A stretch of 64,000 nt of DNA, from positions 14,714 to 78,713 of the forward strand of contig DATDQB010000002.1 of the NCBI GenBank assembly GCA_035292445.1, given 5' to 3'. The stretch comes from Candidatus Omnitrophota bacterium. GTDB lineage: Bacteria > Omnitrophota > Gorgyraeia > Zapsychrales > Zapsychraceae. The notes beneath the pieces were generated by a model. It was not told the origin of the DNA. It saw only the letters and a program-made list of their open reading frames with translations, and made no database searches. Numbering within the stretch: position 1 is the stretch's first letter; every line of letters begins with the position of its first letter. The translations under genes were made by a program, and so were the position numbers. Of this stretch, positions 7,369 to 26,982 are shown piece by piece.

Positions 7369-8223
7369 ATGAACAATTCTGGTAAAGTCATAACCATATT
7401 CGTTGTCATCATCGCGATCCTGTTGATTTCCCTGACGGCCATCTCGCTTTTTTTCTTTAAGCAGGAACGGGAAAGGCGGCAATCGATGGAAGACGCGCTG
7501 GGCGAAAACCGCGCGCAGGTCGCCTCATTGCAAACGCAGTTGGATGAGGCCAAGAAGCAGAAATTTTTGTTTGAGGAAAAAAGCAAGGAAATGGACGAGC
7601 GGATCAACAGTTTGTTGGATGATCTGGAGCTGGAGCAGGGCTTGAAAGAAGAGATGAAGAAAGAACAGACGGCCCTTAATGAGAAGTTGGATAAAGAGAT
7701 CAAGGCGAAAGAAAAACTGAAAGAGGATCTGAACAAACAGATCGCTGATGCGACCGTGAAGATCAAGGAACTGGAGGATAAGCTGCGCTCGGAGGTCGAA
7801 ACGGCCAGTCAGCTGAAAGAGCGCAACCGCTTGCTGGAAAAAGAAAATATGCAGCTGTCCGAAGGCATGGGGATAACCAATTATGTGCCGGCGGCTGCTT
7901 TGACGGATAATGAAGCCAACAAAGAAATGAGCTTGGATGAGATTGTCGTTAAGACCGACGCGGAAAACCAGGCCGTTTCCGTTCCCACGAAAGTCCCCGA
8001 AGGGCGGATCATCAGCGTTGACGATGAGACCGAGTTCGTCATCGTCGATCTTGGTAAAAAACACGGCGTGACGCTGGGGCGCATCATGAGCATCTATCGG
8101 GGCGATAAATACCTGGGTGATATCAAGATCACCCGCGTCCAGCCGGAGATGTCCGCGGCGGATCTGATCTTGCCATTGACCGGAAAATTGGTCCGGAAGA
8201 ACGATCAAGTCATCGCTAAATGA
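7369..8223 (+). CDS. hypothetical membrane-anchored coiled-coil protein with C-terminal beta-rich domain
   Basis: 284 aa; N-terminal TM helix (VITIFVVIIAILLISLTAISLFFF), long E/K/L-rich heptad region, C-terminal ~90 aa globular segment; preceded by TTTACA-N16-TATAAT. Confidence 0.5.
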   Translation: MNNSGKVITIFVVIIAILLISLTAISLFFFKQERERRQSMEDALGENRAQVASLQTQLDEAKKQKFLFEEKSKEMDERINSLLDDLELEQGLKEEMKKEQTALNEKLDKEIKAKEKLKEDLNKQIADATVKIKELEDKLRSEVETASQLKERNRLLEKENMQLSEGMGITNYVPAAALTDNEANKEMSLDEIVVKTDAENQAVSVPTKVPEGRIISVDDETEFVIVDLGKKHGVTLGRIMSIYRGDKYLGDIKITRVQPEMSAADLILPLTGKLVRKNDQVIAK

Positions 8224-15074: not shown

Positions 15075-15103
15075 TTGAGTCCTTCTGCTAGCTATAGTAA
15101 AAT
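15075..15103 (+). promoter_or_regulatory. possible promoter TTGAGT-N17-TAAAAT ahead of the pilus ATPase operon
   Basis: AT-rich 100-nt gap after rodA. Confidence 0.3.
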
Positions 15104-15142
15104 TATATCTATTATTAACTGGCTAAAAAGCGGTTCTCTATC

Positions 15143-15595
15143 ATGAAACAGTTTAAAAAGACGACTAACAAGCAGTTGGGCGAGCTTCTTATTGAGCGCG
15201 GTTTTATCAACCATGAGCAGCTTCATATCGCCATTGAACAGCAAAAGAAACACGGCGGCCTCTTGGGGGAAATCTTGGTAGATTTAAAATTCGCAACCGA
15301 GAAAGATATTGCCCAGGCCTTGACCGCCCAGTACGGATTTCCGTACCTGCCCTTATCCAATTATGAAATCGATCAAGAAGTCATTGAGTCCATCCCTGAA
15401 AATATCTGCCGGAAATTTTGTTTAATTCCCATCGACCGCATCGGCAAAAGTTTGACCCTGGCGATGGCCAACCCTTTGAATATTCAGGCCGCCGAAGACG
15501 TTGAGCTCATTACCGGCTGCAGCGTTCAGGTGTTTGTCAGCACCTCCACCGAAGTTAAACAGACGATCGACAAGTATTACAAAAAGTCTTCCTAA
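15143..15595 (+). CDS. standalone MshEN (c-di-GMP-binding) + T2SSE_N domain protein, no ATPase domain
   Basis: 150 aa; two tandem 24-residue MshEN-type motifs QLGELLIERGFINHEQLHIAIEQQ and LLGEILVDLKFATEKDIAQALTAQ (pattern [RK]LGxxLxxxGxIxxxQLxxALxxQ); then GspE-N1-like LIPIDRIGKSLTLAMANPLN...ITG...V....I..YY. Confidence 0.7.
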   Translation: MKQFKKTTNKQLGELLIERGFINHEQLHIAIEQQKKHGGLLGEILVDLKFATEKDIAQALTAQYGFPYLPLSNYEIDQEVIESIPENICRKFCLIPIDRIGKSLTLAMANPLNIQAAEDVELITGCSVQVFVSTSTEVKQTIDKYYKKSS

Positions 15596-17349
15596 TGGCG
15601 TCTTTAAAGGAACGAATAAAACAAATCCTCCTTCGCGACAAGCTCATTGAGCCGGCCCAGCTTAATAAAGCCCTGGAAGAGCAGAAGGAAAGCGGCGAAG
15701 AACTCAGTAAAATCCTTGTTAATTTGAAACTCATCGAAGAGGACACGTTAAGTCAAATCCTCAGCGAAAGTTTAGGCCTACCGCAGATTGATATTGCCCG
15801 CCTTCAGATCGACCCAAGCGTCGTTAAACTTATCCCTAAAGAATTGGCAGAGAAATATAAGCTTATCGCAGTTTCCTTGATGGGAGAAAACCTTTCTCTC
15901 GCCATGGCCGATCCACTGAACATTTTTGCCATTGATAATGTGAAGGCCTTGACGGGCTATACCATTAATCCCATTATCGGCAGGGCCAAAGATATTGCGA
16001 CGGCGATCCAGAAATATTATTACGAGGCTCAGGAGGAAGTCGAGGAAACATCCGCCAAATTCGATGAGATTATCAAAGATATTCAGTTGGAAGAGAAAAT
16101 GGAATTGGTCAAAGAGGTTGACGCGGATGTCGGAGGGCTTTCCATTGAGGAATTAACGCAAGAAGCGCCTATTATCCGTCTGTGTGACACGATCATTCAG
16201 CAGGCTGTCGTGGCCAAAGCCAGCGACATTTTTATTGAACCCATGGATAAAACGGTGCGCGTGCGCTACCGCATTGACGGCGTCATCCAGGAGATCGATC
16301 GTATGGCGAAGGTGATTCATCTGCCGTTGGTTTCGCGCATCAAAGTCATATCGACTTTGGACATATCCGAACACCGCCTGCCCCAGGACGGGCGGTTTAA
16401 AACGATCATTTCCGGGAATCGCGAAGTCGATTTCCGTGTCAACGTCCTTCCAACGGCGATGGGGGAAAAGGTTGTTTTGAGAGTTTTGGATAAAGACACC
16501 TCCGTTTTAAATATTGAGAGGCTGGGCTTTGATGCAGACTCGCTCAAGCGCTTGGAGGAATGTTATAAAAAGCCCCATGGAATGATCTTGGCTTGCGGGC
16601 CGACGGGATCGGGAAAGACAACGACGTTGTACTCCATTTTAAAATCGTTGGACTCACCAAAGAAGAATATCGTTACGGTGGAAGACCCCGTAGAATACCA
16701 AATGAAAGGGATTAATCAGGTCAATGTTAAAGCTGCTACGGGGCTGACCTTTGCCACCAGCTTGCGTTCTATTCTGCGCCAGGACCCGGATATTATCATG
16801 ATTGGGGAGGTCAGAGATTCCGAAACATTGGATATTGCCGTTAAAGCGGCTTTGACGGGGCATTTGGTCCTAAGCTCATTGCATACGACGACTGCTGCCG
16901 GTTCCATTGTCCGTATGGAAAACATGGGGATCGCTCCTTTTTTGATCTGTTCCAGCGTTTTGGTCATCATCGCCCAAAGGCTCATACGAAAGGTTTGTCC
17001 TCATTGCAAGGAGTCCTATTCTTTGTCCGCTATGGTGTCGGAGAAAGTCGGGTTAACGAGATTATATCCGAGCAAAGCCAAGTTTGAGTTGTTTCGCGGC
17101 GTGGGTTGCAAGAAATGTTTCAAGATGGGCTATGCGGGGCGGGTGGTGATCGCGGAGGTGTTGATTTTTTCTCCCAAACTTAAAGAGATCATCCTTAACC
17201 GGGCCGGAGAAATCAAACTTAAAGAAGCGGCCCGCCGGGAAGGGATGAAAACCATGCGGGAAGACGGGCTGATGAAGGCGGTGGAAGGCATCACCACTCT
17301 CGAAGAAGTCTTGCGCGTTACAGCACCGGATGAAGCGCTTAAGAAATAA
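15595..17349 (+). CDS. pilB: type IV pilus/T2SS assembly ATPase, PilB/GspE/MshE family (paralog 1)
   Basis: 584 aa; N-terminal T2SSE_N domain with degenerate MshEN motifs; Walker A GPTGSGKTTT; tetracysteine CPHC...CKKC; start overlaps upstream stop (TAATG). Confidence 0.85.
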   Translation: MASLKERIKQILLRDKLIEPAQLNKALEEQKESGEELSKILVNLKLIEEDTLSQILSESLGLPQIDIARLQIDPSVVKLIPKELAEKYKLIAVSLMGENLSLAMADPLNIFAIDNVKALTGYTINPIIGRAKDIATAIQKYYYEAQEEVEETSAKFDEIIKDIQLEEKMELVKEVDADVGGLSIEELTQEAPIIRLCDTIIQQAVVAKASDIFIEPMDKTVRVRYRIDGVIQEIDRMAKVIHLPLVSRIKVISTLDISEHRLPQDGRFKTIISGNREVDFRVNVLPTAMGEKVVLRVLDKDTSVLNIERLGFDADSLKRLEECYKKPHGMILACGPTGSGKTTTLYSILKSLDSPKKNIVTVEDPVEYQMKGINQVNVKAATGLTFATSLRSILRQDPDIIMIGEVRDSETLDIAVKAALTGHLVLSSLHTTTAAGSIVRMENMGIAPFLICSSVLVIIAQRLIRKVCPHCKESYSLSAMVSEKVGLTRLYPSKAKFELFRGVGCKKCFKMGYAGRVVIAEVLIFSPKLKEIILNRAGEIKLKEAARREGMKTMREDGLMKAVEGITTLEEVLRVTAPDEALKK

Positions 17350-17354
17350 TCGTT

Positions 17355-19064
17355 ATGGCCAGCACGCTCAAAGATAAAATCTTAAAGACATTGATCGAGA
17401 CCCAAGGGCTCAAAAAGCACGATATTGATGCGGCCATTGATCTGCAAAAAAGAAAAGGCATCAGCCTCGATAAGGCGCTCATGGAAAAGGGCCTTATCAA
17501 GGAAAAAGATTATTTGATCCTTCTGGTCCGCGAGCTTAATATCCCGTTTATTAATTTAAGCAAGTACAATATTGACCCCGCCCTGAAAGAAATCTTCCCG
17601 GAAAGAATCGCGCGCCAGTACAAAGTCATTCCCCTTTCGGCGTTGACCGACACTTTGACGGTCGCCATGAGCGACCCGTTGAACATTTTTATCATTGATG
17701 ACTTGAAGAGTATCACGGGCAAACAGATCGATGTGGTCATCAGCACCAATTCGGAAGTCGAGAAGGCGCTGGATAATTATTACGGTAAGGAATCGACGGA
17801 GTCGGTAACGGATATCAGCAAAGATATCCATGTGGAAGATTTTGAGATCGTGACGGAAGAGGTGGCCCGGCAGGATGTCGATACGGTGGTGGATGAAAGC
17901 GAAAAGGCGCCGATCATCCGGATGGTGAATTTGATCATTCAGGATGCGCTGCGCAAAAAAGCCTCCGACATCCATATGGAGCCGATGGAAGACGGGGTGC
18001 GGGTGCGTTTTCGTATCGACGGGATTTTGAGGGATGTTTTAACGGTTCCTAAGGCTAACCAGAATGCGGTGACTGTCCGCATCAAGATCATGTCGCGTTT
18101 GGACATCACCGTCAACCAGGTGCCGCAGGATGGGCGTTTTAAGTTGAAGTTGGGAAATAAAGAAGTCGATTTTCGTGTCTCCATCCTGCCGACCAGCCAT
18201 GGGCAGAAAATCGTCATGCGGGTTTTGGACAAGGTCAATTTGACCGTCGGCCTTGACGGGCTGGGCTTCAATCCCAAGGCGCTTGAGATCATGAAAGAAG
18301 GCATCAAAAAGCCGTTCGGCATGATCATTGTCACAGGCCCGACAGGAAGCGGGAAATCAACGACCCTTTATTCCATCGTCAATGCTTTGAATTCGGTCGA
18401 TAAGAATATCATCACTATAGAGGATCCGGTTGAATATCTGATCGAAGGGTTGACGCAGATCCAGGCCCGCCCGGAGATCGGCCTTACTTTTGCCGAGGGG
18501 CTAAGGGCCGTTTTGCGCCAAAGCCCCGACATCGTGATGGTCGGCGAGATCCGCGATAACGAAACCGCCGATATCGCCATTAAAGCGTCGTTAACGGGGC
18601 AGCTGGTTTTATCGACGCTTCACACCAACGATGCCTCCGGCGCTCTGACCAGGTTGGTTGATATGGACGTAGAGCCGTTTTTGGTGGCCTCCAGCATTGT
18701 CTTGGTGACCGCCCAACGGCTTTGCCGAAAGATTTGTCCGAGATGTAAAAAGGAAGAAGATGTCCCCAAGAAGGTTCTGGACCAGATGGAGTACAAATTG
18801 AAAGCGGGGACGAAATTTTATCACGGTAAAGGTTGCCCCGTGTGCAATGATACTGGATACCAAGGCCGCATTGCCGTTACCGAAATACTCGAAATCAACG
18901 ATACGGTGCGGGAAATGCTTTTGGGAGGGAAAACATCCGATGATATTAAGGAATACGCCCGTAAGGAACTCCAAATGGCAACGCTTTGGGAAGACGCGAT
19001 GAATAAATGCCTTAACGGTATCACCAGTTTGGAAGAGGTTTTACGCGTTACCAGTGAAGATTAA
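17355..19064 (+). CDS. type IV pilus/T2SS assembly ATPase, PilB/GspE/MshE family (paralog 2)
   Basis: 569 aa; N-terminal T2SSE_N; Walker A GPTGSGKSTT; tetracysteine CPRC...CPVC; too long and N-domain-bearing to be PilT. Confidence 0.85.
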   Translation: MASTLKDKILKTLIETQGLKKHDIDAAIDLQKRKGISLDKALMEKGLIKEKDYLILLVRELNIPFINLSKYNIDPALKEIFPERIARQYKVIPLSALTDTLTVAMSDPLNIFIIDDLKSITGKQIDVVISTNSEVEKALDNYYGKESTESVTDISKDIHVEDFEIVTEEVARQDVDTVVDESEKAPIIRMVNLIIQDALRKKASDIHMEPMEDGVRVRFRIDGILRDVLTVPKANQNAVTVRIKIMSRLDITVNQVPQDGRFKLKLGNKEVDFRVSILPTSHGQKIVMRVLDKVNLTVGLDGLGFNPKALEIMKEGIKKPFGMIIVTGPTGSGKSTTLYSIVNALNSVDKNIITIEDPVEYLIEGLTQIQARPEIGLTFAEGLRAVLRQSPDIVMVGEIRDNETADIAIKASLTGQLVLSTLHTNDASGALTRLVDMDVEPFLVASSIVLVTAQRLCRKICPRCKKEEDVPKKVLDQMEYKLKAGTKFYHGKGCPVCNDTGYQGRIAVTEILEINDTVREMLLGGKTSDDIKEYARKELQMATLWEDAMNKCLNGITSLEEVLRVTSED

Positions 19065-19142: not shown

Positions 19143-19598
19143 TTGATGATTCAAATAGAGGGCCAAGCGCCGCAGCGACATCTTTTGGGGGAGATATTGA
19201 TTCAACGCCGGCTCATCACCCCGGGGCAATTGCAAAGGGCGCTGGAGGTTCAGAAGAACGAGAAACGGTATTTGGGCGAAATCCTGATCGATCTGGGGAT
19301 CGTGGAGGAGCGGGATATTCTGGTCGCTTTAGTCGTCCAATGCAATCTTCCCTATATAGCAGTCCACAACTACTCCATTGATCAAAATGTCATCAGTCTT
19401 ATCCCGGTCGAGATGGCCAGGCGATATCATGTGATGCCCTTGGACCGCGTCGGTGACATCTTAAGCGTCGTTATGGCCGATCCATTGAATGAAGAAATCA
19501 AAACAGAGCTCATTAAAGCGACCCAGTGCCAGATCGCGCCTTTTATCGCGACCAAAGCAGAAATAGAAGAAGCCATCAGCCGATGGTATAAAAGCTAA
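19143..19598 (+). CDS. standalone MshEN (c-di-GMP-binding) + T2SSE_N domain protein, no ATPase domain
   Basis: 151 aa; near-canonical tandem MshEN motifs LLGEILIQRRLITPGQLQRALEVQ and YLGEILIDLGIVEERDILVALVVQ; then T2SSE_N-like ...DILSVVMADPLNEE. Confidence 0.7.
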   Translation: MMIQIEGQAPQRHLLGEILIQRRLITPGQLQRALEVQKNEKRYLGEILIDLGIVEERDILVALVVQCNLPYIAVHNYSIDQNVISLIPVEMARRYHVMPLDRVGDILSVVMADPLNEEIKTELIKATQCQIAPFIATKAEIEEAISRWYKS

Positions 19599-19604
19599 AC
19601 AACC

Positions 19605-20810
19605 ATGCCAACATTTAAATATACAGCCAAAAATAAAGACTCCCGCACCGTCGCCGGAAAGATTGTCGCCGAAAACCAGCAGGCGGTTATCGAAGAACTG
19701 CGAAAGCGCAATTTAGTCATTCTCAATCTTAATGAAACCAAAGAAGTCACGGCCAAGAAAACCGCTTTCCAGAGCAAAAAAGTCAAAGGGGAAGAGATTG
19801 TCATCTTTTCCCGCCAATTGGCCACGATGGTCGAAGCCGGCATCCCTATCCTGCAAGGGGTTAACGCGTTGAAAGACCAGGTCAATCATCCTGCCTTCAA
19901 GAAAGTTCTGGGGCAGGTGGAAAGCGATATTCAGCACGGCAGCAGCCTTTCAGTCGCGTTTTCCAAACACCCCCAGGTTTTTAGCACGTTGTTTGTCAAT
20001 ATGGTCAAAGTCGGGGAAACCGGAGGCGTTTTGTCCCAAATCTTGGACCGGATCGCCACGTATTTGGAGAAAACGCTTCGTTTGCAAAGAAAAGTCAAGG
20101 CGGCCCTTATTTATCCGGCGGTCGTTGTTTCCATGGCGATCATTATTACGGTTTTTCTTCTTGTTAAGGTTGTTCCGACCTTCTCCGGGATTTATGAATC
20201 GTTCAATGCGGATTTGCCGGCGATGACGGTAGTGCTGATTACCATAAGTAAAATTCTACGGCAGAATATTCTTTGGCTCGCGGGTGCGTTGATCATAGCG
20301 GGGTTTTTTTTAAGGCGGTGGTATAAAACAGATAAAGGAGCGCTTGTCATTGACCGAATTTTTTTAAGGTTGCCTATTTTCGGGGAACTTTTAAGGAAAG
20401 TCGCCATCAGCCGGTTCAGCCGCACGCTGGCCACGCTGGTGCAAAGCGGCGTTCCCATTCTTGAATCGTTGGATATTGTCGAGAAAACCATTGGCAACAA
20501 AGTCCTTGAACTTGTTGTCCGGGATGTCAAGAGCACGGTCCGGGAAGGAGAAAGCATCGCCACTCCTTTGGAGAAAAGCAACGTTTTCCCGCCCATGGTC
20601 ACGCGCATGATCGCGGTGGGTGAGAAAACCGGCCAAATGGAGAAAATGCTTTTAAAAATCTCCGAATTTTATGATGACCAAGTGGATGCGGCCGTTGAGG
20701 GTTTGACCAGTGTTATCGAGCCTTTGATCATCGGGTTCTTAGGGATTGTCATCGGATTCATCGTGGTTGCGTTATTCTTGCCTATCATCAATATCACGCG
20801 TTTAATATAA
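19605..20810 (+). CDS. pilC: type IV pilus platform protein PilC/GspF family
   Basis: 401 aa; two repeated GspF domains each followed by TM segments; begins MPTFKYTAKN... typical of PilC. Confidence 0.85.
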   Translation: MPTFKYTAKNKDSRTVAGKIVAENQQAVIEELRKRNLVILNLNETKEVTAKKTAFQSKKVKGEEIVIFSRQLATMVEAGIPILQGVNALKDQVNHPAFKKVLGQVESDIQHGSSLSVAFSKHPQVFSTLFVNMVKVGETGGVLSQILDRIATYLEKTLRLQRKVKAALIYPAVVVSMAIIITVFLLVKVVPTFSGIYESFNADLPAMTVVLITISKILRQNILWLAGALIIAGFFLRRWYKTDKGALVIDRIFLRLPIFGELLRKVAISRFSRTLATLVQSGVPILESLDIVEKTIGNKVLELVVRDVKSTVREGESIATPLEKSNVFPPMVTRMIAVGEKTGQMEKMLLKISEFYDDQVDAAVEGLTSVIEPLIIGFLGIVIGFIVVALFLPIINITRLI

Positions 20811-20819
20811 TTTTCGTTT

Positions 20820-21818
20820 ATGAGCAAATCTCTTCATAATACGTTTTGGTTGAAAGGATGCGTCCTTCTTTGTTTTATGCTTTGTCCTGCCTTAAAGGTC
20901 GAAGCGCAAGTGCACAGCCGAAACTCACCCGTTCTATCCTTGGAATACAGCTTAAAGAGTCTATACGACAGCGCCAATGAAGTGGCGAAGAAAAACGAAT
21001 GGCTTCGCCAGGAAATCGACCGGATGAGCCAGGAAGTTACGTTTATAACGGAAGAAATGCGCTCTTTGGAAACCAACCAAACCAAGGGTATGGTTGGCCA
21101 AGCGCTGGGGGATGAGGGTTTGATGAAAGATATTCCCTGGGAAGAGAAACGCATCCAGATGATGTATGAGGATTTTATTGAATTGGATGAGGAGGAAAAG
21201 TATTTAAAGGATCGTTTTGAAGGGAAAAAAAATGACCAACAAGAGATCGAAGAGGCTGTTTATAAGCTGGAAAAAGAAGTTGCCCAGCTGGCCAATCAAA
21301 GGTTACAGGCCGAAGAGGCGCTGGGCCGTCGGGGTGACGCTGGGGAATTTGACCGGTTAAAGGACGCTTATGCCCGAGCGGCCAGGCATCTTAAGATCAC
21401 GAGAGATAAATATCAACGGTTAGAAAATCAGCACGGCCAGCCGCTGAAGGTTTTTAGCAAGATAAAGGACAGGAATATTGAGCTTAAGGGGCGGCAGGCT
21501 TTTTTGAGCAAGCAGATCCATTTGATTAACGAGCGGCAAATAAGCTTGGGGGAGGAAATCGACAACATCAAAGCAACAGATAAGGAGAGATTAAGCCTCC
21601 TTCAAAAGGACGTTGGGGATTTATCCAGGCAAAGAGAAGATTTATTAAGGGTCTTAAAACGGGCGAATGTCAAATTGGGCAAAGATTTCAGCATACCGGA
21701 TTATGATGCCCAGATCGGCCAGGTTAAGGGAAATATTGAAACGATCAAAGAGGAAAACCGCCTCCTTAAAGAAGAGCTGATTTCTTTGGAAAGCAAGATG
21801 TTGGAAGCCCCCCAGTAG
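20820..21818 (+). CDS. hypothetical secreted coiled-coil protein embedded in pilus locus
   Basis: 332 aa; N-terminal signal peptide (CVLLCFMLCPALKVEA|Q); remainder E/K/L/Q-rich predicted coiled coil. Confidence 0.5.
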   Translation: MSKSLHNTFWLKGCVLLCFMLCPALKVEAQVHSRNSPVLSLEYSLKSLYDSANEVAKKNEWLRQEIDRMSQEVTFITEEMRSLETNQTKGMVGQALGDEGLMKDIPWEEKRIQMMYEDFIELDEEEKYLKDRFEGKKNDQQEIEEAVYKLEKEVAQLANQRLQAEEALGRRGDAGEFDRLKDAYARAARHLKITRDKYQRLENQHGQPLKVFSKIKDRNIELKGRQAFLSKQIHLINERQISLGEEIDNIKATDKERLSLLQKDVGDLSRQREDLLRVLKRANVKLGKDFSIPDYDAQIGQVKGNIETIKEENRLLKEELISLESKMLEAPQ

Positions 21819-21849: not shown

Positions 21850-21879
21850 TTGACAAGGGGCAGGGGGCCGTGGTATACT
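21850..21879 (+). promoter_or_regulatory. sigma70-like promoter TTGACA-N18-TATACT driving the riboswitch RNA
   Basis: TTGACA at 21850-21855, TATACT at 21874-21879; the -35 box sits in a partial copy of the intergenic repeat. Confidence 0.5.
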
Positions 21880-22089: not shown

Positions 22090-22124
22090 AACCTATTCCT
22101 TACATTCGGAATAGGTTTTTTTGT
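22090..22124 (+). terminator. strong intrinsic terminator
   Basis: AACCTATTCC ttacattc GGAATAGGTT 10-bp stem followed by TTTTTTTGTTTT. Confidence 0.7.
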
Positions 22125-22176: not shown

Positions 22177-22206
22177 TTGACAAGATTAGGAGGTGAATGG
22201 TAGAGT
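22177..22206 (+). promoter_or_regulatory. candidate sigma70 promoter for the pilin gene (TTGACA-N18-TAGAGT)
   Basis: perfect -35, acceptable -10; about 148 nt 5' UTR to ATG 22354. Confidence 0.4.
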
Positions 22207-22353: not shown

Positions 22354-22749
22354 ATGAAAAGGCTAAAAAATCAAGGTTTTACGCTCGTTGAAATCATGAT
22401 CGTTGTCGCGATCATCGCTCTGTTGGCGGCTATTGCCATCCCCAACTTGTTAAGAGCGAAAATCTCCGCTAACGACGCGTTAGCGCAGAGCACGCTACGT
22501 ACCCTTTCTACGGCATCTGAGACGTTTGCTACCTCAAACAACGGTACGTATCCGGGTGACATCACATCGTTGACAGGCGCCACACCACCGTATATAAATG
22601 AACCATTTTGTACTCAAACTATTTCCGGGTTCGTATATGGTTGTACGATGGCTGCGGGTAGTTATTCGTTTGCCGCTGTCCCCGTTAACGTGGGTGTATC
22701 TGGTACGACAACGTTTACCATGACAACCGGCGGTATTTTAACTCCGTAA
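22354..22749 (+). CDS. pilA: type IVa major pilin (prepilin with N-terminal methylation motif)
   Basis: 131 aa from ATG 22354 with AAGGAG RBS; leader MKRLKNQG|FTLVEIMIVVAIIALLAAIAIP with G-1, F+1, E+5; C-terminal Cys pair; followed by strong terminator. Confidence 0.9.
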   Translation: MKRLKNQGFTLVEIMIVVAIIALLAAIAIPNLLRAKISANDALAQSTLRTLSTASETFATSNNGTYPGDITSLTGATPPYINEPFCTQTISGFVYGCTMAAGSYSFAAVPVNVGVSGTTTFTMTTGGILTP

Positions 22750-22803: not shown

Positions 22804-23063
22804 ATTGATAAAAAGAACTGTTTAAATGTTTCACGGCCAGCTTCGTTGCTTACGAAAGGGTCCCTATGAGAGAACGGTTATTCTTTATATTCATAAAAGT
22901 TTCTTCAGAGGGCTCCTCTTTACTCCTCCTGCCGCAACCGCACTGTTTTCGTTTCAAAGATGGAACAAATGGCCATTTCTATTTTTTTATGAAATACTGC
23001 TTGATGAGAAGGGCATCCTCCAATACTATATATAGAAAGAATAAATATATTTATATTACTTAT

Positions 23064-24119
23064 ATGAAAAGACTTCTCGAACGTTATTTCAATTTTATCA
23101 AAGGTTTTATCCCTTCCGAGCCACAGACCACTTCTATAGGATTAGAGATAACCCAAAATGAGTGTAAGATGGTGGAGGTCAAGAAAAGCAGCAACGGCTT
23201 TCAAGTTGTTCGTTGGGCCATTGAATCGCTTGATGAAAACAAGCCCGTCAATACGATTAAAGCCATTCTCCCATCAGATTTAACACAAGCTTCGGTGCAT
23301 ACAGCCGTTAACGGCAAGGGGACGCTCATTCGTTATATTGAAATGCCCCGGATGACCGTTGATGAATTAAGGAATTCTTTTGCGCTGGAATCCGATAAAT
23401 ATTTCCCTTTTGCCCAGGATCAAATTTATACCGATTGCTATATTTTGGACCCTACGGGCAAAACAAAACAAATGGATGTCATGGCCGCGGCCTCGACCAA
23501 AGACCTTATTGATAATCGTTTAAAATTGATGAATGAAGCCGGGGTCCAGACCGATTTTATCGGCATTAATTCGGTGGCGTTGGCGAATGTGATCAACGCA
23601 TTGGGATATGAACTGCAGGATGCCAAGCCCGAGATGACCTATGTCCTTGTCGATATCGGCGAGTCTGTAAGCAACGTGACGATTATGATTAACAAGTTTC
23701 CACGGTTTTCCCGGGATATTTTTATCGGCGGCAGGGATTTTATCAAACGAATTTCCAATGCGTTCGGCAAAAGCAGTAAAGAGGCGCGGGCTTTGTGCGC
23801 AGAGCCTTCGGAAAAAGCGAAGGAGATTATCAGCGCGTGCGAGTCGATTTTTTTGAATATGACTCAGGAATTAAGGCTCTCCTTCGATTATTTTTCTACG
23901 GAAAGAAATAAAGAAGTGGATAAAATCTATTTAACCGGCGATTATGCGCTGCTGCCGGGCATTAAACAGGCCTTAGAGGAGCATCTTGAGCTTAAAGTCG
24001 AATTATGGAACCCGTTTAACCAGTTAACATATGTGCCAGATATATCCAAGGAAGATATTCAGAAAAACGCCCACAGGCTGACGGTCGCCTTGGGATTATC
24101 TTTGTATAATTATGATTGA
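23064..24119 (+). CDS. pilM: type IV pilus assembly protein PilM (actin-like ATPase fold)
   Basis: 351 aa from ATG 23064 (ORF track extends upstream into an AT-rich region with no plausible coding signal); IGLEITQNECKMVEV N-terminus typical of PilM; followed by pilN. Confidence 0.8.
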   Translation: MKRLLERYFNFIKGFIPSEPQTTSIGLEITQNECKMVEVKKSSNGFQVVRWAIESLDENKPVNTIKAILPSDLTQASVHTAVNGKGTLIRYIEMPRMTVDELRNSFALESDKYFPFAQDQIYTDCYILDPTGKTKQMDVMAAASTKDLIDNRLKLMNEAGVQTDFIGINSVALANVINALGYELQDAKPEMTYVLVDIGESVSNVTIMINKFPRFSRDIFIGGRDFIKRISNAFGKSSKEARALCAEPSEKAKEIISACESIFLNMTQELRLSFDYFSTERNKEVDKIYLTGDYALLPGIKQALEEHLELKVELWNPFNQLTYVPDISKEDIQKNAHRLTVALGLSLYNYD

Positions 24120-24708
24120 AATTAATTTAGTTCCACAACATTTACGTAAGCGTAAACGGAAATTGTTAGGGCAACTGAAAATCCCTCTGGAGATCGTTAT
24201 CGGTTGCGCCGGGGGATTGGTCATGTTTTTGATTTTGGCTCACGTGGGGTTATTGATGGTGAATGTTTTTAGGCTTAATTATCATAAGGGTCTGAAAAAA
24301 CAATGGGACGTGATTTTGCCGGCCAAGGAGAATGTCGATAAGGTGCTTCAGGAAATGCGCGAGCTGCAGGCCAAGCATAAAGCTATCGAAAAGATCACCA
24401 CCGATGACCGGATCTCTTGGTCTCAAAAGATGAACATACTAAGTGACGGTATTGTCAGGGGCGTTTGGTTGACGCGGGTGCGCCTCAAAGAAGGGGTCTT
24501 TTTTATCGAAGGAAGCGCCATTTCAAAACAAAATGACGAGATGATCAATGTTCACAGCTTCACTTCGAATTTGAAGAACGAAAAGAGCTTCTTGGAAAAA
24601 TTCAGCGATTTGGAGCTGGGCTCTATTCAGCGGCGCAATATCGGTAAGACGGAGATAGCCGATTTTCTTATAACCGCTGAGCTAGTTAAGGAAACCGATG
24701 GCGAATAA
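24112..24708 (+). CDS. pilN: type IV pilus assembly protein PilN
   Basis: 198 aa; N-terminal IEINLVPQHLRKRK then a single TM, classic PilN start (INLLP-like). Confidence 0.8.
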   Translation: MIEINLVPQHLRKRKRKLLGQLKIPLEIVIGCAGGLVMFLILAHVGLLMVNVFRLNYHKGLKKQWDVILPAKENVDKVLQEMRELQAKHKAIEKITTDDRISWSQKMNILSDGIVRGVWLTRVRLKEGVFFIEGSAISKQNDEMINVHSFTSNLKNEKSFLEKFSDLELGSIQRRNIGKTEIADFLITAELVKETDGE

Positions 24709-25306
24709 ATATTCTGATCAATTGAATAAATATTTTGTTAAATTGCAAGACATGGACCAAAAGAATTGGTATTATATATTGGCTGGTCTTCTGGTTTTGG
24801 TCTTTGTGTTGGATTATTTTACTTTGATGAAACCGCAGCTGGGTGCTTTGTCTAAGATCAGTCCGGAAATTAAGATTTTGTCGGATAATTTAAAACGGAC
24901 AAAGACGGACATTGCGCGGATCACTGAGTATAAGGATCAGATTCAAAAGCTTAAAGAGGGCTTTGATGCCTTAAGGTTGCGGGTACGGACCAAACAGGAA
25001 GTTCCGCTTGTTTTAGAAAAGATTTCCCGTATCGCCAATAAGAATCGAGTGAAGATAGATCAAATTATGCCTAATCCTCTGCAGCAAAAAATCCTTTTAG
25101 AGGGCAATGACAAGACATATTTTGATCTACCTATTATCATAGAGGCCAGAAGCGGTTATCATGATTTTGGTCGGTTTATTAACGAATTGGAGAATGGCGA
25201 TATTTTTCTCAAGGTTGATGGGTTTACGATCGCTGCGATGCCAGGGTCCCAATTAAACGCCATACAGCTGACGCTAAAGACGATTGTTGTTGAAGAGAAC
25301 AAATAA
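24698..25306 (+). CDS. pilO: type IV pilus assembly protein PilO
   Basis: 202 aa; single N-terminal TM, coiled coil then periplasmic domain; position between pilN and pilP. Confidence 0.7.
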   Translation: MANKYSDQLNKYFVKLQDMDQKNWYYILAGLLVLVFVLDYFTLMKPQLGALSKISPEIKILSDNLKRTKTDIARITEYKDQIQKLKEGFDALRLRVRTKQEVPLVLEKISRIANKNRVKIDQIMPNPLQQKILLEGNDKTYFDLPIIIEARSGYHDFGRFINELENGDIFLKVDGFTIAAMPGSQLNAIQLTLKTIVVEENK

Positions 25307-25316
25307 AAGGTTTGGC

Positions 25317-25661
25317 ATGCGTCTTATATGGTTTGTCATCTTGAGTTTATTGGCTATCCCTGCTATTGCGCAGGAGGCGCGTTTTATGTATGATGATCAC
25401 GGTAAACGGGATCCATTTTTGCCTTTGGTGGGCGAGGGCGGCAACATCATCAGCTATGAAACCGATTTTACGGTTTCCGATCTGGTTCTAGAAGGGATCA
25501 TGGCCGGTTCGGAAGGGGCTCATATCGCCATCATCAACGGCAGGGTCGTCAAGGCAGGAGATCAGTTGGGCAATTTTTTCATCCAGGATGTGCAGCCGGA
25601 GTCGGTTATTATTAAAAAAGACAACCTAAAATTCGAACTAAAATTGGAAAAGGAGGATTAA
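25317..25661 (+). CDS. pilP: type IV pilus assembly lipoprotein PilP-like
   Basis: start taken at ATG 25317 giving signal peptide MRLIWFVILSLLAIPAIA (ORF track starts at 25284 overlapping pilO); conserved KRDPFLPL motif typical of PilP. Confidence 0.65.
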   Translation: MRLIWFVILSLLAIPAIAQEARFMYDDHGKRDPFLPLVGEGGNIISYETDFTVSDLVLEGIMAGSEGAHIAIINGRVVKAGDQLGNFFIQDVQPESVIIKKDNLKFELKLEKED

Positions 25662-25662
25662 C

Positions 25663-26982
25663 ATGTTTAAAAGAGTAATGGCTAGTGTAACCGCGTTGAT
25701 CTTTGTGGCGACGATGAGTTTTGCCCAAACGCCAACGCCGCAGGCCGCGACGGGAGAAGAAAATATCTCCATGAGCGCGGAAGGGTATGTAAGTTTGGAT
25801 TTCCGGGAAGCCGATATTCGAAACGTTTTTAAGATTCTTTCCTTTAAAAGCGGGGTGAATATCGTGGCCGGACCGGAGGTCACGGGAACGGTATCCATTC
25901 AGCTTAATAACGTCCCCTGGAAACAGGCCTTGGATGTTATCTTACAGACATACGGGTATGCCTATGAGCAAAGAGGCAACATCATTATCGTTACAACCGT
26001 GGAAAATCTCAAGAAACGACGGGAAGACGCCATGGTTTTGGCGGAACAGGAACCGGTGGAAACAAGGACGTATACGCTTAATTTCGGTAAGGCATCAGAA
26101 ATAATTGCTTCCTTAGAGAAAATGAAATCCGATCGAGGGAGCATCGATTTTGATGAACGCACGAACACCTTAATTATTACCGATTCAACCTCGAAATTGG
26201 ACTTGATGGCCACCGTTGTTGAAACGCTCGATTCTACGACGCCTCAGGTTCTTATTGAGGCAAAGATCGTGGAAACTCAGTTTAATGATGAGGAAAACCT
26301 GGGGATCGATTGGATCGTCCAGGCCTCCGCTCGAGGGGCGCTGCGCCCAACGACGTATCCGTTCACCAATCACTCAAGCAATAAATATCTGGTTGATGAT
26401 TTCGTGGAGCCGGAAGATGAAGATTTTACTTTCGGTACGCTCGATTTCAACCAGTTCCAGGTCGTTTTGGAAATGTTGAAAACAAGAAGCAACACGGAGA
26501 TCCTATCGAGTCCGCGTATTGTAACAGTGGACAACCAGACGGCATCCATTACCGTTGGCAGCCAATATCCCATTCCCACTTACACGTATAATGAGGAGCA
26601 AGCCCGTCTTCAAGTGTCCGGCTGGGAATACATGGATATCGGTATTATTTTTGATGTGACGCCGCATGTCAATGATGCCGGATTTGTCACAATTGACGTA
26701 CAGCCGAAGATTACGGCGATCTTGGATTTTGTCACGGTTGAGAATACGTCATTACCCCGTTTGAGTAATGAATCCGCCAAAACAAGCGTCATGGTTAAAG
26801 ACGGGGATACGTTGGTCATCGGCGGTTTGGTCAAAACACAGACCACGGAAACAAAGAAACGCACGCCGTTTCTCGGGGAGATTCCTATCCTCGGTTATGT
26901 GTTTCGTAAATCCGAAATGACCAATGAGAAGACCGATTTGATTATTTTCATTACGCCTCATATCATTACGCCTGAGATGTAA
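25663..26982 (+). CDS. pilQ: type IV pilus secretin PilQ (compact, no AMIN domains)
   Basis: 439 aa; signal peptide; C-terminal secretin signature GGLVKTQTTETKKRTPFLGEIPILGYVFRKSEMTNEKTDLIIFITPHII. Confidence 0.85.
   Translation: MFKRVMASVTALIFVATMSFAQTPTPQAATGEENISMSAEGYVSLDFREADIRNVFKILSFKSGVNIVAGPEVTGTVSIQLNNVPWKQALDVILQTYGYAYEQRGNIIIVTTVENLKKRREDAMVLAEQEPVETRTYTLNFGKASEIIASLEKMKSDRGSIDFDERTNTLIITDSTSKLDLMATVVETLDSTTPQVLIEAKIVETQFNDEENLGIDWIVQASARGALRPTTYPFTNHSSNKYLVDDFVEPEDEDFTFGTLDFNQFQVVLEMLKTRSNTEILSSPRIVTVDNQTASITVGSQYPIPTYTYNEEQARLQVSGWEYMDIGIIFDVTPHVNDAGFVTIDVQPKITAILDFVTVENTSLPRLSNESAKTSVMVKDGDTLVIGGLVKTQTTETKKRTPFLGEIPILGYVFRKSEMTNEKTDLIIFITPHIITPEM

Follow-up and report, generated by a model that had tools for sequence, protein, structure and literature searches.

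The MshEN domain is known from MshE of Vibrio cholerae, an ATPase associated with a type IV pilus, whose N terminus has been seen with bound cyclic diguanylate (c-di-GMP; 5HTL; Wang et al. 2016, PMC5013675). It has a two-subdomain fold and two motifs of 24 residues separated by a spacer of 5 (24+5+24), each with a Leu-Gly pair, a hydrophobic triad and a terminal Gln. All of these traits recur in MshEN-1, a protein encoded in a 64,000-nucleotide stretch of contig DATDQB010000002.1 (the window) from a Candidatus Omnitrophota bacterium. In MshE, however, the domain is the N terminus of the ATPase, with Arg in the first position and Gly at the turn of both motifs, whereas here it is a separate protein of 150 residues encoded in front of two PilB-type ATPases. 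The evidence tips towards MshEN-1 being a c-di-GMP sensor that has been detached from a pilus extension motor with two ATPases and serves it in trans; that it binds the messenger and contacts a partner protein we infer.

Three other systems are close enough to be compared. PilF of Thermus thermophilus (8PDK; PMC11731258, PMC12002112) carries an extra GSPII domain N-terminal to an ATPase that also bears a non-binding GSPII domain (GSPII-A). Unlike in PilF, the extra domain of the window is the product of a separate gene, the first residue of its motif I is Gln, His or Pro in the family and not Lys, and there are two ATPase paralogues, often accompanied by a second free MshEN protein. PA3740 of Pseudomonas aeruginosa (PMC5013675 Supplementary Table 4) is a precedent for a protein that is built on the MshEN motif and is not an ATPase. 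It consists of MshEN and a diverged T2SSE_N1 part, and both c-di-GMP binding and an effect on swarming have been reported for it (PMC5013675). Compared by description only, the N1 part of PA3740 is highly diverged, whereas that of MshEN-1 is canonical and locked into a pil operon. The FimX-PilZ-PilB systems of Xanthomonas and Pseudomonas (PMC8389850, PMC11656802; 7LKO) resemble the present one in that a separate c-di-GMP sensor feeds a PilB with a non-binding N1 domain (N1D), to which an adaptor binds. There, however, the parts are FimX, with a degenerate EAL domain, and the adaptor PilZ, whose folds are unrelated to MshEN and which have no sequence relationship to it.

MshEN domains outside ATPases are already known (PA3740, NfrB, and fusions to REC, CheA and HD-GYP; PMC5013675), and an exhaustive search of representatives returned many single-domain MshEN proteins of 145-180 residues. 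The domain architecture of MshEN-1 alone is therefore not new. The literature search found no description of a phylum-wide operon that pairs free MshEN with two PilB paralogues of degenerate motifs, of the free domain and PilB-A being related by fission or fusion, or of a motif variant of the form Q/H/P-LG ... L-LG. The search for MshEN papers since 2022 returned no title on a stand-alone MshEN protein, and a 'stand-alone' match from Paenibacillus turned out to be unrelated.

MshEN-1 and its parts are positioned in the window as follows.
15143-15595, + strand: MshEN-1, a 150-residue stand-alone MshEN/GSPII-domain protein in a single open reading frame (ORF)
15173-15244, + strand: motif I, residues 11-34, QLGELLIERGFINHEQLHIAIEQQ; L12-G13, G20, L27, I31 and Q34 kept, Q11 in place of Arg
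15245-15259, + strand: spacer KKHGG, 5 residues (35-39), read from the sequence
15260-15331, + strand: motif II, residues 40-63, LLGEILVDLKFATEKDIAQALTAQ; L41-G42, I56, L60 and Q63 kept, L40 in place of Arg, K49 in place of the turn Gly
15332-15586, + strand: C-terminal T2SSE_N1-type subdomain, residues 64-148, from Pfam MshEN and the secondary structure of the AlphaFold2 model

MshEN-1, which begins with MKQFKK and ends with KYYKKSS, is a complete stand-alone MshEN domain. The Pfam profile MshEN (PF05157) matches residues 64-148 (E 2.4e-20, 72.8 bits, cut-off 23.1) over model positions 1-86 of 90, and the NCBIfam profile NF053729 (c-di-GMP_motif, MshE-related) matches residues 11-63 (E 3e-18, 65.4 bits, cut-off 38). 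Full-length phmmer matches among the Protein Data Bank sequences are GSPII-A/B/C of Thermus PilF, the N-termini of Geobacter PilB, and MshE (5HTL; E 6e-16, residues 9-145). The AlphaFold2 model, built on 45 family sequences, has a mean pLDDT of 91.7 and contains helices 12-18, 24-37, 41-47 and 53-64 followed by an alpha/beta unit, which gives the N-terminal four-helix bundle and the alpha/beta T2SSE_N1 subdomain of the MshEN fold. The best Foldseek matches of the model are 5HTL_B and 5HTL_A, that is, MshE with c-di-GMP (TM-scores 0.80/0.86, root mean square deviation 2.2 Å). They are followed by PilF GSPII-A, by c-di-GMP-bound structures of PilF GSPII-B and by the X. citri PilB N1D from its complex with PilZ.

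The Pfam profile scan found no PF00437 match, and hence no ATPase domain, in MshEN-1. The profile TIGR02538 (type_IV_pilB) aligns residues 12-149 with its positions 2-139 of 564 alone, scoring 84.9 bits against a cut-off of 675.65. The label 'type IV pilus assembly protein PilB' that JGI gives to homologues is a misnomer because the T2SSE ATPase domain is lacking; database homologues of MshEN-1 are labelled either in this way or as 'hypothetical protein'. The first-pass annotation, made from the letters of the DNA, had described a free-standing MshEN protein with two motif peptides and a remainder of GspE-N1/T2SSE_N fold. Both profiles, the model and Foldseek agree with that description, and the peptides are indeed residues 11-34 and 40-63 of the 150-residue ORF. 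The profile search and structure prediction that it proposed as a check, with a missing profile match as the outcome that would speak against it, gave the strong matches listed above.

MshEN-1 is also a real, separate gene under strong purifying selection. It is matched by 3967 database proteins, the best 120 of which are all 148-162 residues long and 74-88% identical to it. One entry (P0001) is identical to MshEN-1; it comes from a metagenome-assembled genome (MAG) of Candidatus Omnitrophota, where it bears the annotation 'hypothetical protein VI749_00925'. A locus scan with one genome per GTDB species yielded 54 loci with 33-80% identity to MshEN-1. The orthologue is a separate ORF of about 145-185 residues in all of them except L056 and L058, which are among the weakest of the scan and are ordinary PilB N-termini. 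The C-terminal end, ...KYY(K/S)xx, is conserved among close homologues. Comparison with nine orthologues gave a nonsynonymous divergence (dN) of 0.14-0.39, with 0.14-0.17 for the closest, at a saturated synonymous divergence (dS). The conservation of MshEN-1 is no lower than that of its neighbours: identity to the orthologues from L001 and L003 amounts to 79% and 75%, respectively, for MshEN-1, to 70% for PilB-A, to 69% for PilB-B and to 73-74% for PilC.

The canonical MshEN motif is RLGxx(L/V/I)(L/V/I)xxG(L/V/I)(L/V/I)xxxxLxxxLxxQ, in the 24+5+24 layout (PMC5013675); the roles of its residues are taken here from PMC5013675 and PMC11731258. MshEN-1 has this layout (53 residues) and aligns to residues 166-227 of PilF (GSPII-B). 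Residues R9, L10, G11, G18, L25, L29 and Q32 of motif I of V. cholerae MshE correspond to Q11, L12, G13, G20, L27, I31 and Q34 of MshEN-1. Residues R38, L39, G40, G47, L54, L58 and Q61 of motif II correspond to L40, L41, G42, K49, I56, L60 and Q63, and the 5-residue spacer to KKHGG. Both motifs thus have Leu-Gly at positions 2-3, whose backbone contacts phosphate and guanine, a hydrophobic residue at each of positions 17 and 21, and the Gln of position 24; the turn Gly of position 10 is present in motif I only, and the Arg of position 1 in neither. The pair had been called canonical tandem motifs for binding c-di-GMP. The tandem layout, the LG pairs, the hydrophobic residues, both Gln and the spacer are there, but the word 'canonical' has to be given up in view of Q11, L40, K49 and the replacement of Leu by I31 and I56. 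Asn110 of MshEN-1 (Asn in 50 and Asp in 4 of the orthologues) is no more than a guess for the counterpart of MshE Asp108, which makes the guanine contact of the C-terminal subdomain.

Lack of Arg in first position is a trait of the family. In the 120 close homologues, position 11 is Gln in 66 and His in 50, with Arg found once; position 40 is Leu in 117 and Met in 3; position 49 is Lys in 88, Asn in 22 and Arg in 7, and never Gly. The 54 orthologues are more varied in the first residue of motif I (Q22/P20/H6/K2/T2/L2) than in that of motif II (L52/M1/F1), and neither position contains Arg. Leu at position 2 of motif I is found in 53 of them, and the turn position of motif II is occupied by Gly in 25, Lys in 18 and Asn in 10. 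Loss of Arg need not mean loss of the ligand. The first residues of both motifs of PilF GSPII-B are K167 and L196 instead of Arg, yet the domain binds c-di-GMP with a dissociation constant (KD) of 6 nM, and restoring Arg weakens binding (PMC11731258). The consensus was consequently widened to (R/K/L)LG..., and a hydrophobic first residue was proposed to predict very high affinity (PMC11731258). L40 of motif II has its counterpart in L196 and fits this extended consensus. Leu can be exchanged for Ile at positions 17 and 21 with a loss of only 2.4-fold (PMC12002112). Judged by these residues, MshEN-1 is likely to bind c-di-GMP.

MshEN-1 belongs to a series of genes that run along the + strand in the order mreB, mreC, mreD, PBP2, rodA, MshEN-1, PilB-A, PilB-B, MshEN-2, PilC, a 332-residue protein, pilin, PilM, PilN, PilO, a small protein and PilQ. 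The genes next to it are the following.
15593-15597, + strand: TAATG stop/start overlap of MshEN-1 and PilB-A, in which TAA (15593-15595) shares its last base with ATG (15595-15597)
15595-17349, + strand: PilB-A, a PilB/GspE-type ATPase of 584 residues with its own N-terminal MshEN domain and the Walker A sequence GPTGSGKT
17355-19064, + strand: PilB-B, a second PilB/GspE-type ATPase, of 569 residues, with degenerate MshEN motifs
19143-19598, + strand: MshEN-2, a second stand-alone MshEN protein of about 150 residues, likely starting at ATG 19146
19605-20810, + strand: PilC, the platform protein (T2SSF, by Pfam)

The order MshEN-1, PilB-A, PilB-B, (MshEN-2), PilC is found in all of the approximately 47 loci that have enough flanking sequence, down to about 50% identity. 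Of the 54 loci, 17 have MshEN-2, placed between PilB-B and PilC. Both ATPases contain Walker A, the Walker B region and the Cys motif, as read from the translations. MshEN-2 is 41% identical to MshEN-1, has LG and Gln in both motifs and an aromatic first residue (Y/F) in motif II, and is less conserved than MshEN-1, with 53% identity to its orthologue in L003.

The four MshEN domains of the operon differ in the ligand-contact residues. The Gly at position 3 is present in both motifs of all 54 MshEN-1 proteins, and the Gln at position 24 in 47 (motif I) and 53 (motif II) of them. The 17 MshEN-2 proteins are similar, with Gly in 17 in both motifs and Gln in 16 and 17. By comparison, the Gly is found in 0 of 48 PilB-A proteins in motif I and in one in motif II, and in 0 and one of 46 PilB-B proteins. 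The Gln is retained in motif I of 33 PilB-A and 27 PilB-B proteins; in motif II it is absent from PilB-A (0/48) and present in 2 of 46 PilB-B proteins, with Glu in 41 of the 46. The PilB-A motifs of the window start with RIK.. and ELS.., with a terminal Ser, and those of PilB-B with KIL.. and SLD.., with a terminal Glu. NF053729 scores 58.2 bits on MshEN-2 and 19.2 bits on PilB-B (cut-off 38).

These substitutions are known to be costly. The c-di-GMP-induced thermal stabilisation seen with wild-type MshEN is lost in G11L and G40I (PMC5013675 and supplement), Gly to Ala costs 10-30 fold in binding (PMC12002112), and Q190E together with Q218E abolishes c-di-GMP binding (PMC11731258). The N-terminal domains of PilB-A and PilB-B are accordingly predicted not to bind c-di-GMP. 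Since all four classes share the same fold, at 32-41% identity between classes, the selective retention of the contact residues in the free proteins points to ligand binding rather than folding. The operon offers an internal contrast between paralogous domains with and without the contact residues. The family, in which the first position is Gln, His or Pro and a turn position Lys or Asn, amounts to a natural experiment on the MshEN motif.

The relationship between MshEN-1 and PilB-A is illuminated by a protein of 765 residues, P0131, encoded in locus L004. Residues 4-150 of this protein show 47% identity to MshEN-1. After a linker of some 40 residues comes a second part, residues 192-758, with 48% identity to PilB-A and 40% to PilB-B. 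Downstream of it are a PilB-B-like gene and then PilC. The MshEN-1 and PilB-A gene pair is therefore collinear with one (MshEN)2-T2SSE protein, and P0131 matches the PilF-type (MshEN)n-T2SSE architecture exactly. P0134 and P0170 are further fused (MshEN)2-T2SSE proteins. This architecture is known from Clostridia, and Thermus PilF has three copies of the domain (PMC5013675 Supplementary Table 4). MshEN-1 may have originated as the split-off first domain of an (MshEN)2-ATPase, and the pair is an example of the fission and fusion of a receptor-domain gene.

The following mechanism is proposed. MshEN-1, the product of the first gene of a type IVa pilus operon, would act in trans on the extension motor, most directly on PilB-A. 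Its N-terminal four-helix subdomain would bind one c-di-GMP molecule through the tandem Arg-less motifs (xLG...Q, spacer, LLG...Q), and its C-terminal N1-type subdomain would dock it onto the motor or the platform. The messenger signal would thereby reach PilB-A and PilB-B, whose own MshEN domains are devoid of the contact residues. In its role MshEN-1 would resemble the additional GSPII domains of PilF. The binding of c-di-GMP and the association with PilB-A or the platform we infer, as we do the sign of the regulation, which may be activation or inhibition of pilus extension. It is possible, if rather doubtful, that the motor has four parts, namely two catalytically competent PilB paralogues that do not bind the messenger and one or two free, Arg-less and possibly nanomolar MshEN subunits acting in trans. 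Such an architecture is not known to have been described for any type IV pilus. Were it correct, these ultra-small, host-dependent bacteria would control their host-attachment pilus through a separable sensor, whose amount could change without that of the ATPases.

Nearly all Omnitrophota, a phylum of uncultured, ultra-small and probably predatory or parasitic bacteria, have type IVa pili, which are believed to be the basis of their attachment to host cells (PMC10066038). PilB, diguanylate cyclases and second messengers are not mentioned in that paper. MshEN-1 is a concrete, testable candidate for a regulator of these pili.

Several observations weigh against a c-di-GMP sensor. Gln, His or Pro at the start of motif I lies beyond the (R/K/L) consensus, and this residue and the Lys at the turn of motif II (K49 for Gly) are outside every published consensus. 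Replacement of the turn (middle) Gly of MshE by Leu or Ile considerably reduced binding (PMC5013675, Fig. 3 legend), and binding was abolished by a small residue, Ser, at the start of motif II in a construct engineered from GSPII-A (PMC12002112). Full-length PilF GSPII-A, which has an extended helix 1 and tight contacts between its subdomains, does not bind even with the consensus fully restored (PMC12002112), and for this reason sequence alone is no proof of c-di-GMP binding. PilB-A still scores 47 bits on NF053729, above the cut-off of 38, and calling its motifs degenerate is residue-level reasoning. The fusion of MshEN-1 to PilB-A is found in one locus only, L004. Finally, no GGDEF, EAL, HD-GYP or PilZ gene was found among the window ORFs scanned.

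The last point is partly answered by a related locus. A regular-expression scan for GGDEF over 777 kb of related loci found one protein, which Pfam confirmed. It is encoded at 4476-5894 of L037 (Omnitrophota MAG BS750m-G22) and is a HAMP-GAF-GGDEF protein of diguanylate-cyclase type with an intact GGDEF motif. The gene order there is HAMP-GAF-GGDEF, PilT-like ATPase, MshEN-1, PilB-A, PilB-B, PilC, so that the GGDEF gene lies directly upstream of the pilus genes. This shows a predicted capacity for c-di-GMP synthesis in the phylum and beside an MshEN-1 operon, which does not settle c-di-GMP synthesis for the window's own genome.

As an alternative, MshEN-1 may be a ligand-independent adaptor or chaperone that stabilises or localises PilB-A or PilB-B without c-di-GMP, its motif residues serving the fold only. 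PilZ, which acts in this way on the X. citri PilB N1D, would be the model. The absence of Arg from both motifs, K49 at the turn, the non-binding GSPII domains that bear the consensus (PMC12002112) and the lack of c-di-GMP enzymes among the window ORFs scanned all fit, and conservation over the whole surface points to protein partners. The near-invariant residues, Gly in position 3 and Gln in position 24, are, however, backbone or side-chain contacts of the ligand that the helix bundle does not need. Paralogous ATPase domains of the same fold have freely lost them, a pattern that selection for ligand binding predicts, and in L037 a GGDEF gene abuts the operon. We regard an adaptor of this kind as unlikely, though it fares best among the alternatives.

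Somewhat less likely still is that MshEN-1 is a decoy or brake, which mimics the N1D of the ATPase and competes for docking to PilM or the platform, as an inhibitor of extension that is either c-di-GMP-controlled or constitutive. The C-terminal subdomain has the T2SSE_N1 fold, with which GspE binds GspL in 2BH1 and 4PHT; these two structures are among the weaker Foldseek matches. It is as conserved as the motif-bearing subdomain (mean top-residue frequency 0.73 versus 0.70 for the N-terminal one), and a contact of the PilB N1D with PilM or the stator has been inferred in a review (PMC11656802). A separate polypeptide could in principle also vary in amount relative to the ATPase. On the other hand, fusion in P0131 tethers the domain to PilB-A permanently, which sits badly with a pure competitor, and the place of MshEN-1 at the head of the operon, along with a stop/start overlap that is frequent, suggests roughly equimolar co-production with PilB-A.

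A sensor of another nucleotide, such as 3'3'-cyclic GMP-AMP (cGAMP), would require that the first residues of the motifs (Gln/His/Pro and Leu) retune the specificity of MshEN-1. MshEN does bind cGAMP, more weakly (PMC5013675), and it is the base-stacking residues of first position that differ systematically from Arg. Guanine specificity, however, is conferred in MshEN by backbone amides, those of the Gly and of the residue after it (PMC5013675), which are kept in both motifs and would make both half-sites guanine-type, and PilF GSPII-B binds c-di-GMP with Lys and Leu in first position (PMC11731258). This alternative is very improbable.

Fused (MshEN)2-T2SSE proteins exist, and the two frames abut with a one-base overlap. 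Even so, the chance is practically nil that faulty sequencing or assembly produced the stop at 15593-15595, or that an (MshEN)2-ATPase was split there in a recent pseudogenising event: this reading is refuted by the lengths of the homologues (148-162 residues), the separate ORF found in independent assemblies with varied intergenic spacing, the conserved C terminus and the purifying selection, and MshEN-1 and PilB-A are in different frames. The first-pass annotation had named an erroneous stop, with the protein fused to the ATPase, as what would overturn its reading; more than 50 independently assembled genomes keep the stop, and the MshEN-1 ORF of the window is separate, with no covalent (MshEN)2-T2SSE fusion.

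The expression of MshEN-1 together with its neighbours can be considered from the surrounding sequence. The first-pass annotation had the next gene begin at the stop of MshEN-1, and this is where the 584-residue PilB-type ATPase starts; it had also suggested a check for translational coupling. The overlap is present in the window, and also in L001, L003, L006, L012, L014, L015, L018, L020, L022 and L057. It is not conserved throughout, as TAATG-type overlaps occur in roughly one quarter to one third of the orthologous loci and the remainder have gaps of 3-150 nucleotides. Obligatory translational coupling is therefore not supported as a conserved trait, and co-operonic expression is the safe claim, because gaps replace the overlap in most loci. 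Shine-Dalgarno sequences are weak throughout the window, so that the lack of one in front of PilB-A is uninformative. No terminator-like site was found on the + strand from the rodA-MshEN-1 intergenic region on, between 15143 and 22090. The promoter-like sites listed below rest on consensus matching alone, with no evidence of function.

The remaining features of the pil region are given here.
15075-15144, + strand: AT-rich region between rodA and MshEN-1, containing two weak promoter matches of sigma-70 type (15075-15103 and 15115-15144, each at 9/12 positions)
20820-21818, + strand: 332-residue protein with a charged, heptad-like sequence and no Pfam family, the final gene before the terminator-like site at 22090-22117
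21850-21879 (11/12) and 22177-22206 (10/12): promoter-like sites in front of the pilin gene, the best matches of the region
22090-22117, + strand: terminator-like hairpin, 3' of the 20820-21818 gene and just upstream of the pilin gene
22354-22749, + strand: type IV pilin (N_methyl motif) with the leader MKRLKNQGFTLVE from ATG 22354; the listed ORF starts at GTG 22222
22866-24119, + strand: PilM
24112-24708, + strand: PilN
24698-25306, + strand: PilO
25284-25661, + strand: small protein between PilO and PilQ
25663-26982, + strand: PilQ secretin

The arrangement in front of the pilin gene suggests that it belongs to a separate transcription unit. The 332-residue protein is 18-20% identical to its positional counterparts, and its reading as a coiled coil was made by eye. 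The pil cluster of the window contains no PilT gene.

A functional link of MshEN-1 to the upstream mreBCD-mrdA-rodA genes was considered and rejected, as the adjacency is found in the close clade only; distant loci have a PilT-like ATPase, a REC protein (L059) or an unrelated gene in this place. The PilT-like ATPase, of about 355 residues and with a T2SSE domain but no MshEN, is encoded directly upstream of MshEN-1 in a deeper-branching subset (L030, 5921-6988; L032, 63-1124; L034, 5853-6977; L037, 5917-6981). Positions 110-1037 of L060 contain two tandem stand-alone MshEN genes, encoding 149 and 153 residues, followed directly by a gene for at least 550 residues that is truncated by the contig end and has no recorded Pfam annotation. 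This would be another split variant.

Most of the 54 loci are labelled Omnitrophota, a dozen or so carry the label 'uncultured Planctomycetales/Planctomycetia' and a few have other taxon names. Omnitrophota-type operons are found on contigs labelled 'uncultured Planctomycetales/Planctomycetia', 'Lysobacterales' or 'Methanosarcinales archaeon' (L007, L013, L018, L025, L028, L053 and others). Such labels are probably due to mis-binning or outdated taxonomy.

The C-terminal subdomain of MshEN-1 has three conserved cysteines (window 15407-15421 and 15518-15520): C126 is present in 53, C93 in 47 and C89 in 39 of the 54 orthologues. C126 is common to MshEN-1 and MshEN-2 and is absent from the N-terminal domains of the PilB proteins; a redox or metal site is possible. 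Elsewhere in the window, a 284-residue ORF at 7369-8223 (+ strand) is without a Pfam family; its gene is flanked by those for a pseudouridine synthase and a murA-like protein, and L001 and L003 have an unannotated gene in a similar place.

Two homologues combine the domain with unexpected partners. P0163 (454 residues; JGI label 'chromosomal replication initiator protein DnaA') has an N-terminal MshEN domain, 50% identical to MshEN-1 over residues 5-148, and a Bac_DnaA ATPase domain, which hints at a possible c-di-GMP input to a DnaA-like protein. P0164 (723 residues) has an MshEN domain, 49% identical to MshEN-1, followed by PilZ and then by DUF7305 / adhesive-like domains, so that two different folds of c-di-GMP receptor are found in one protein.

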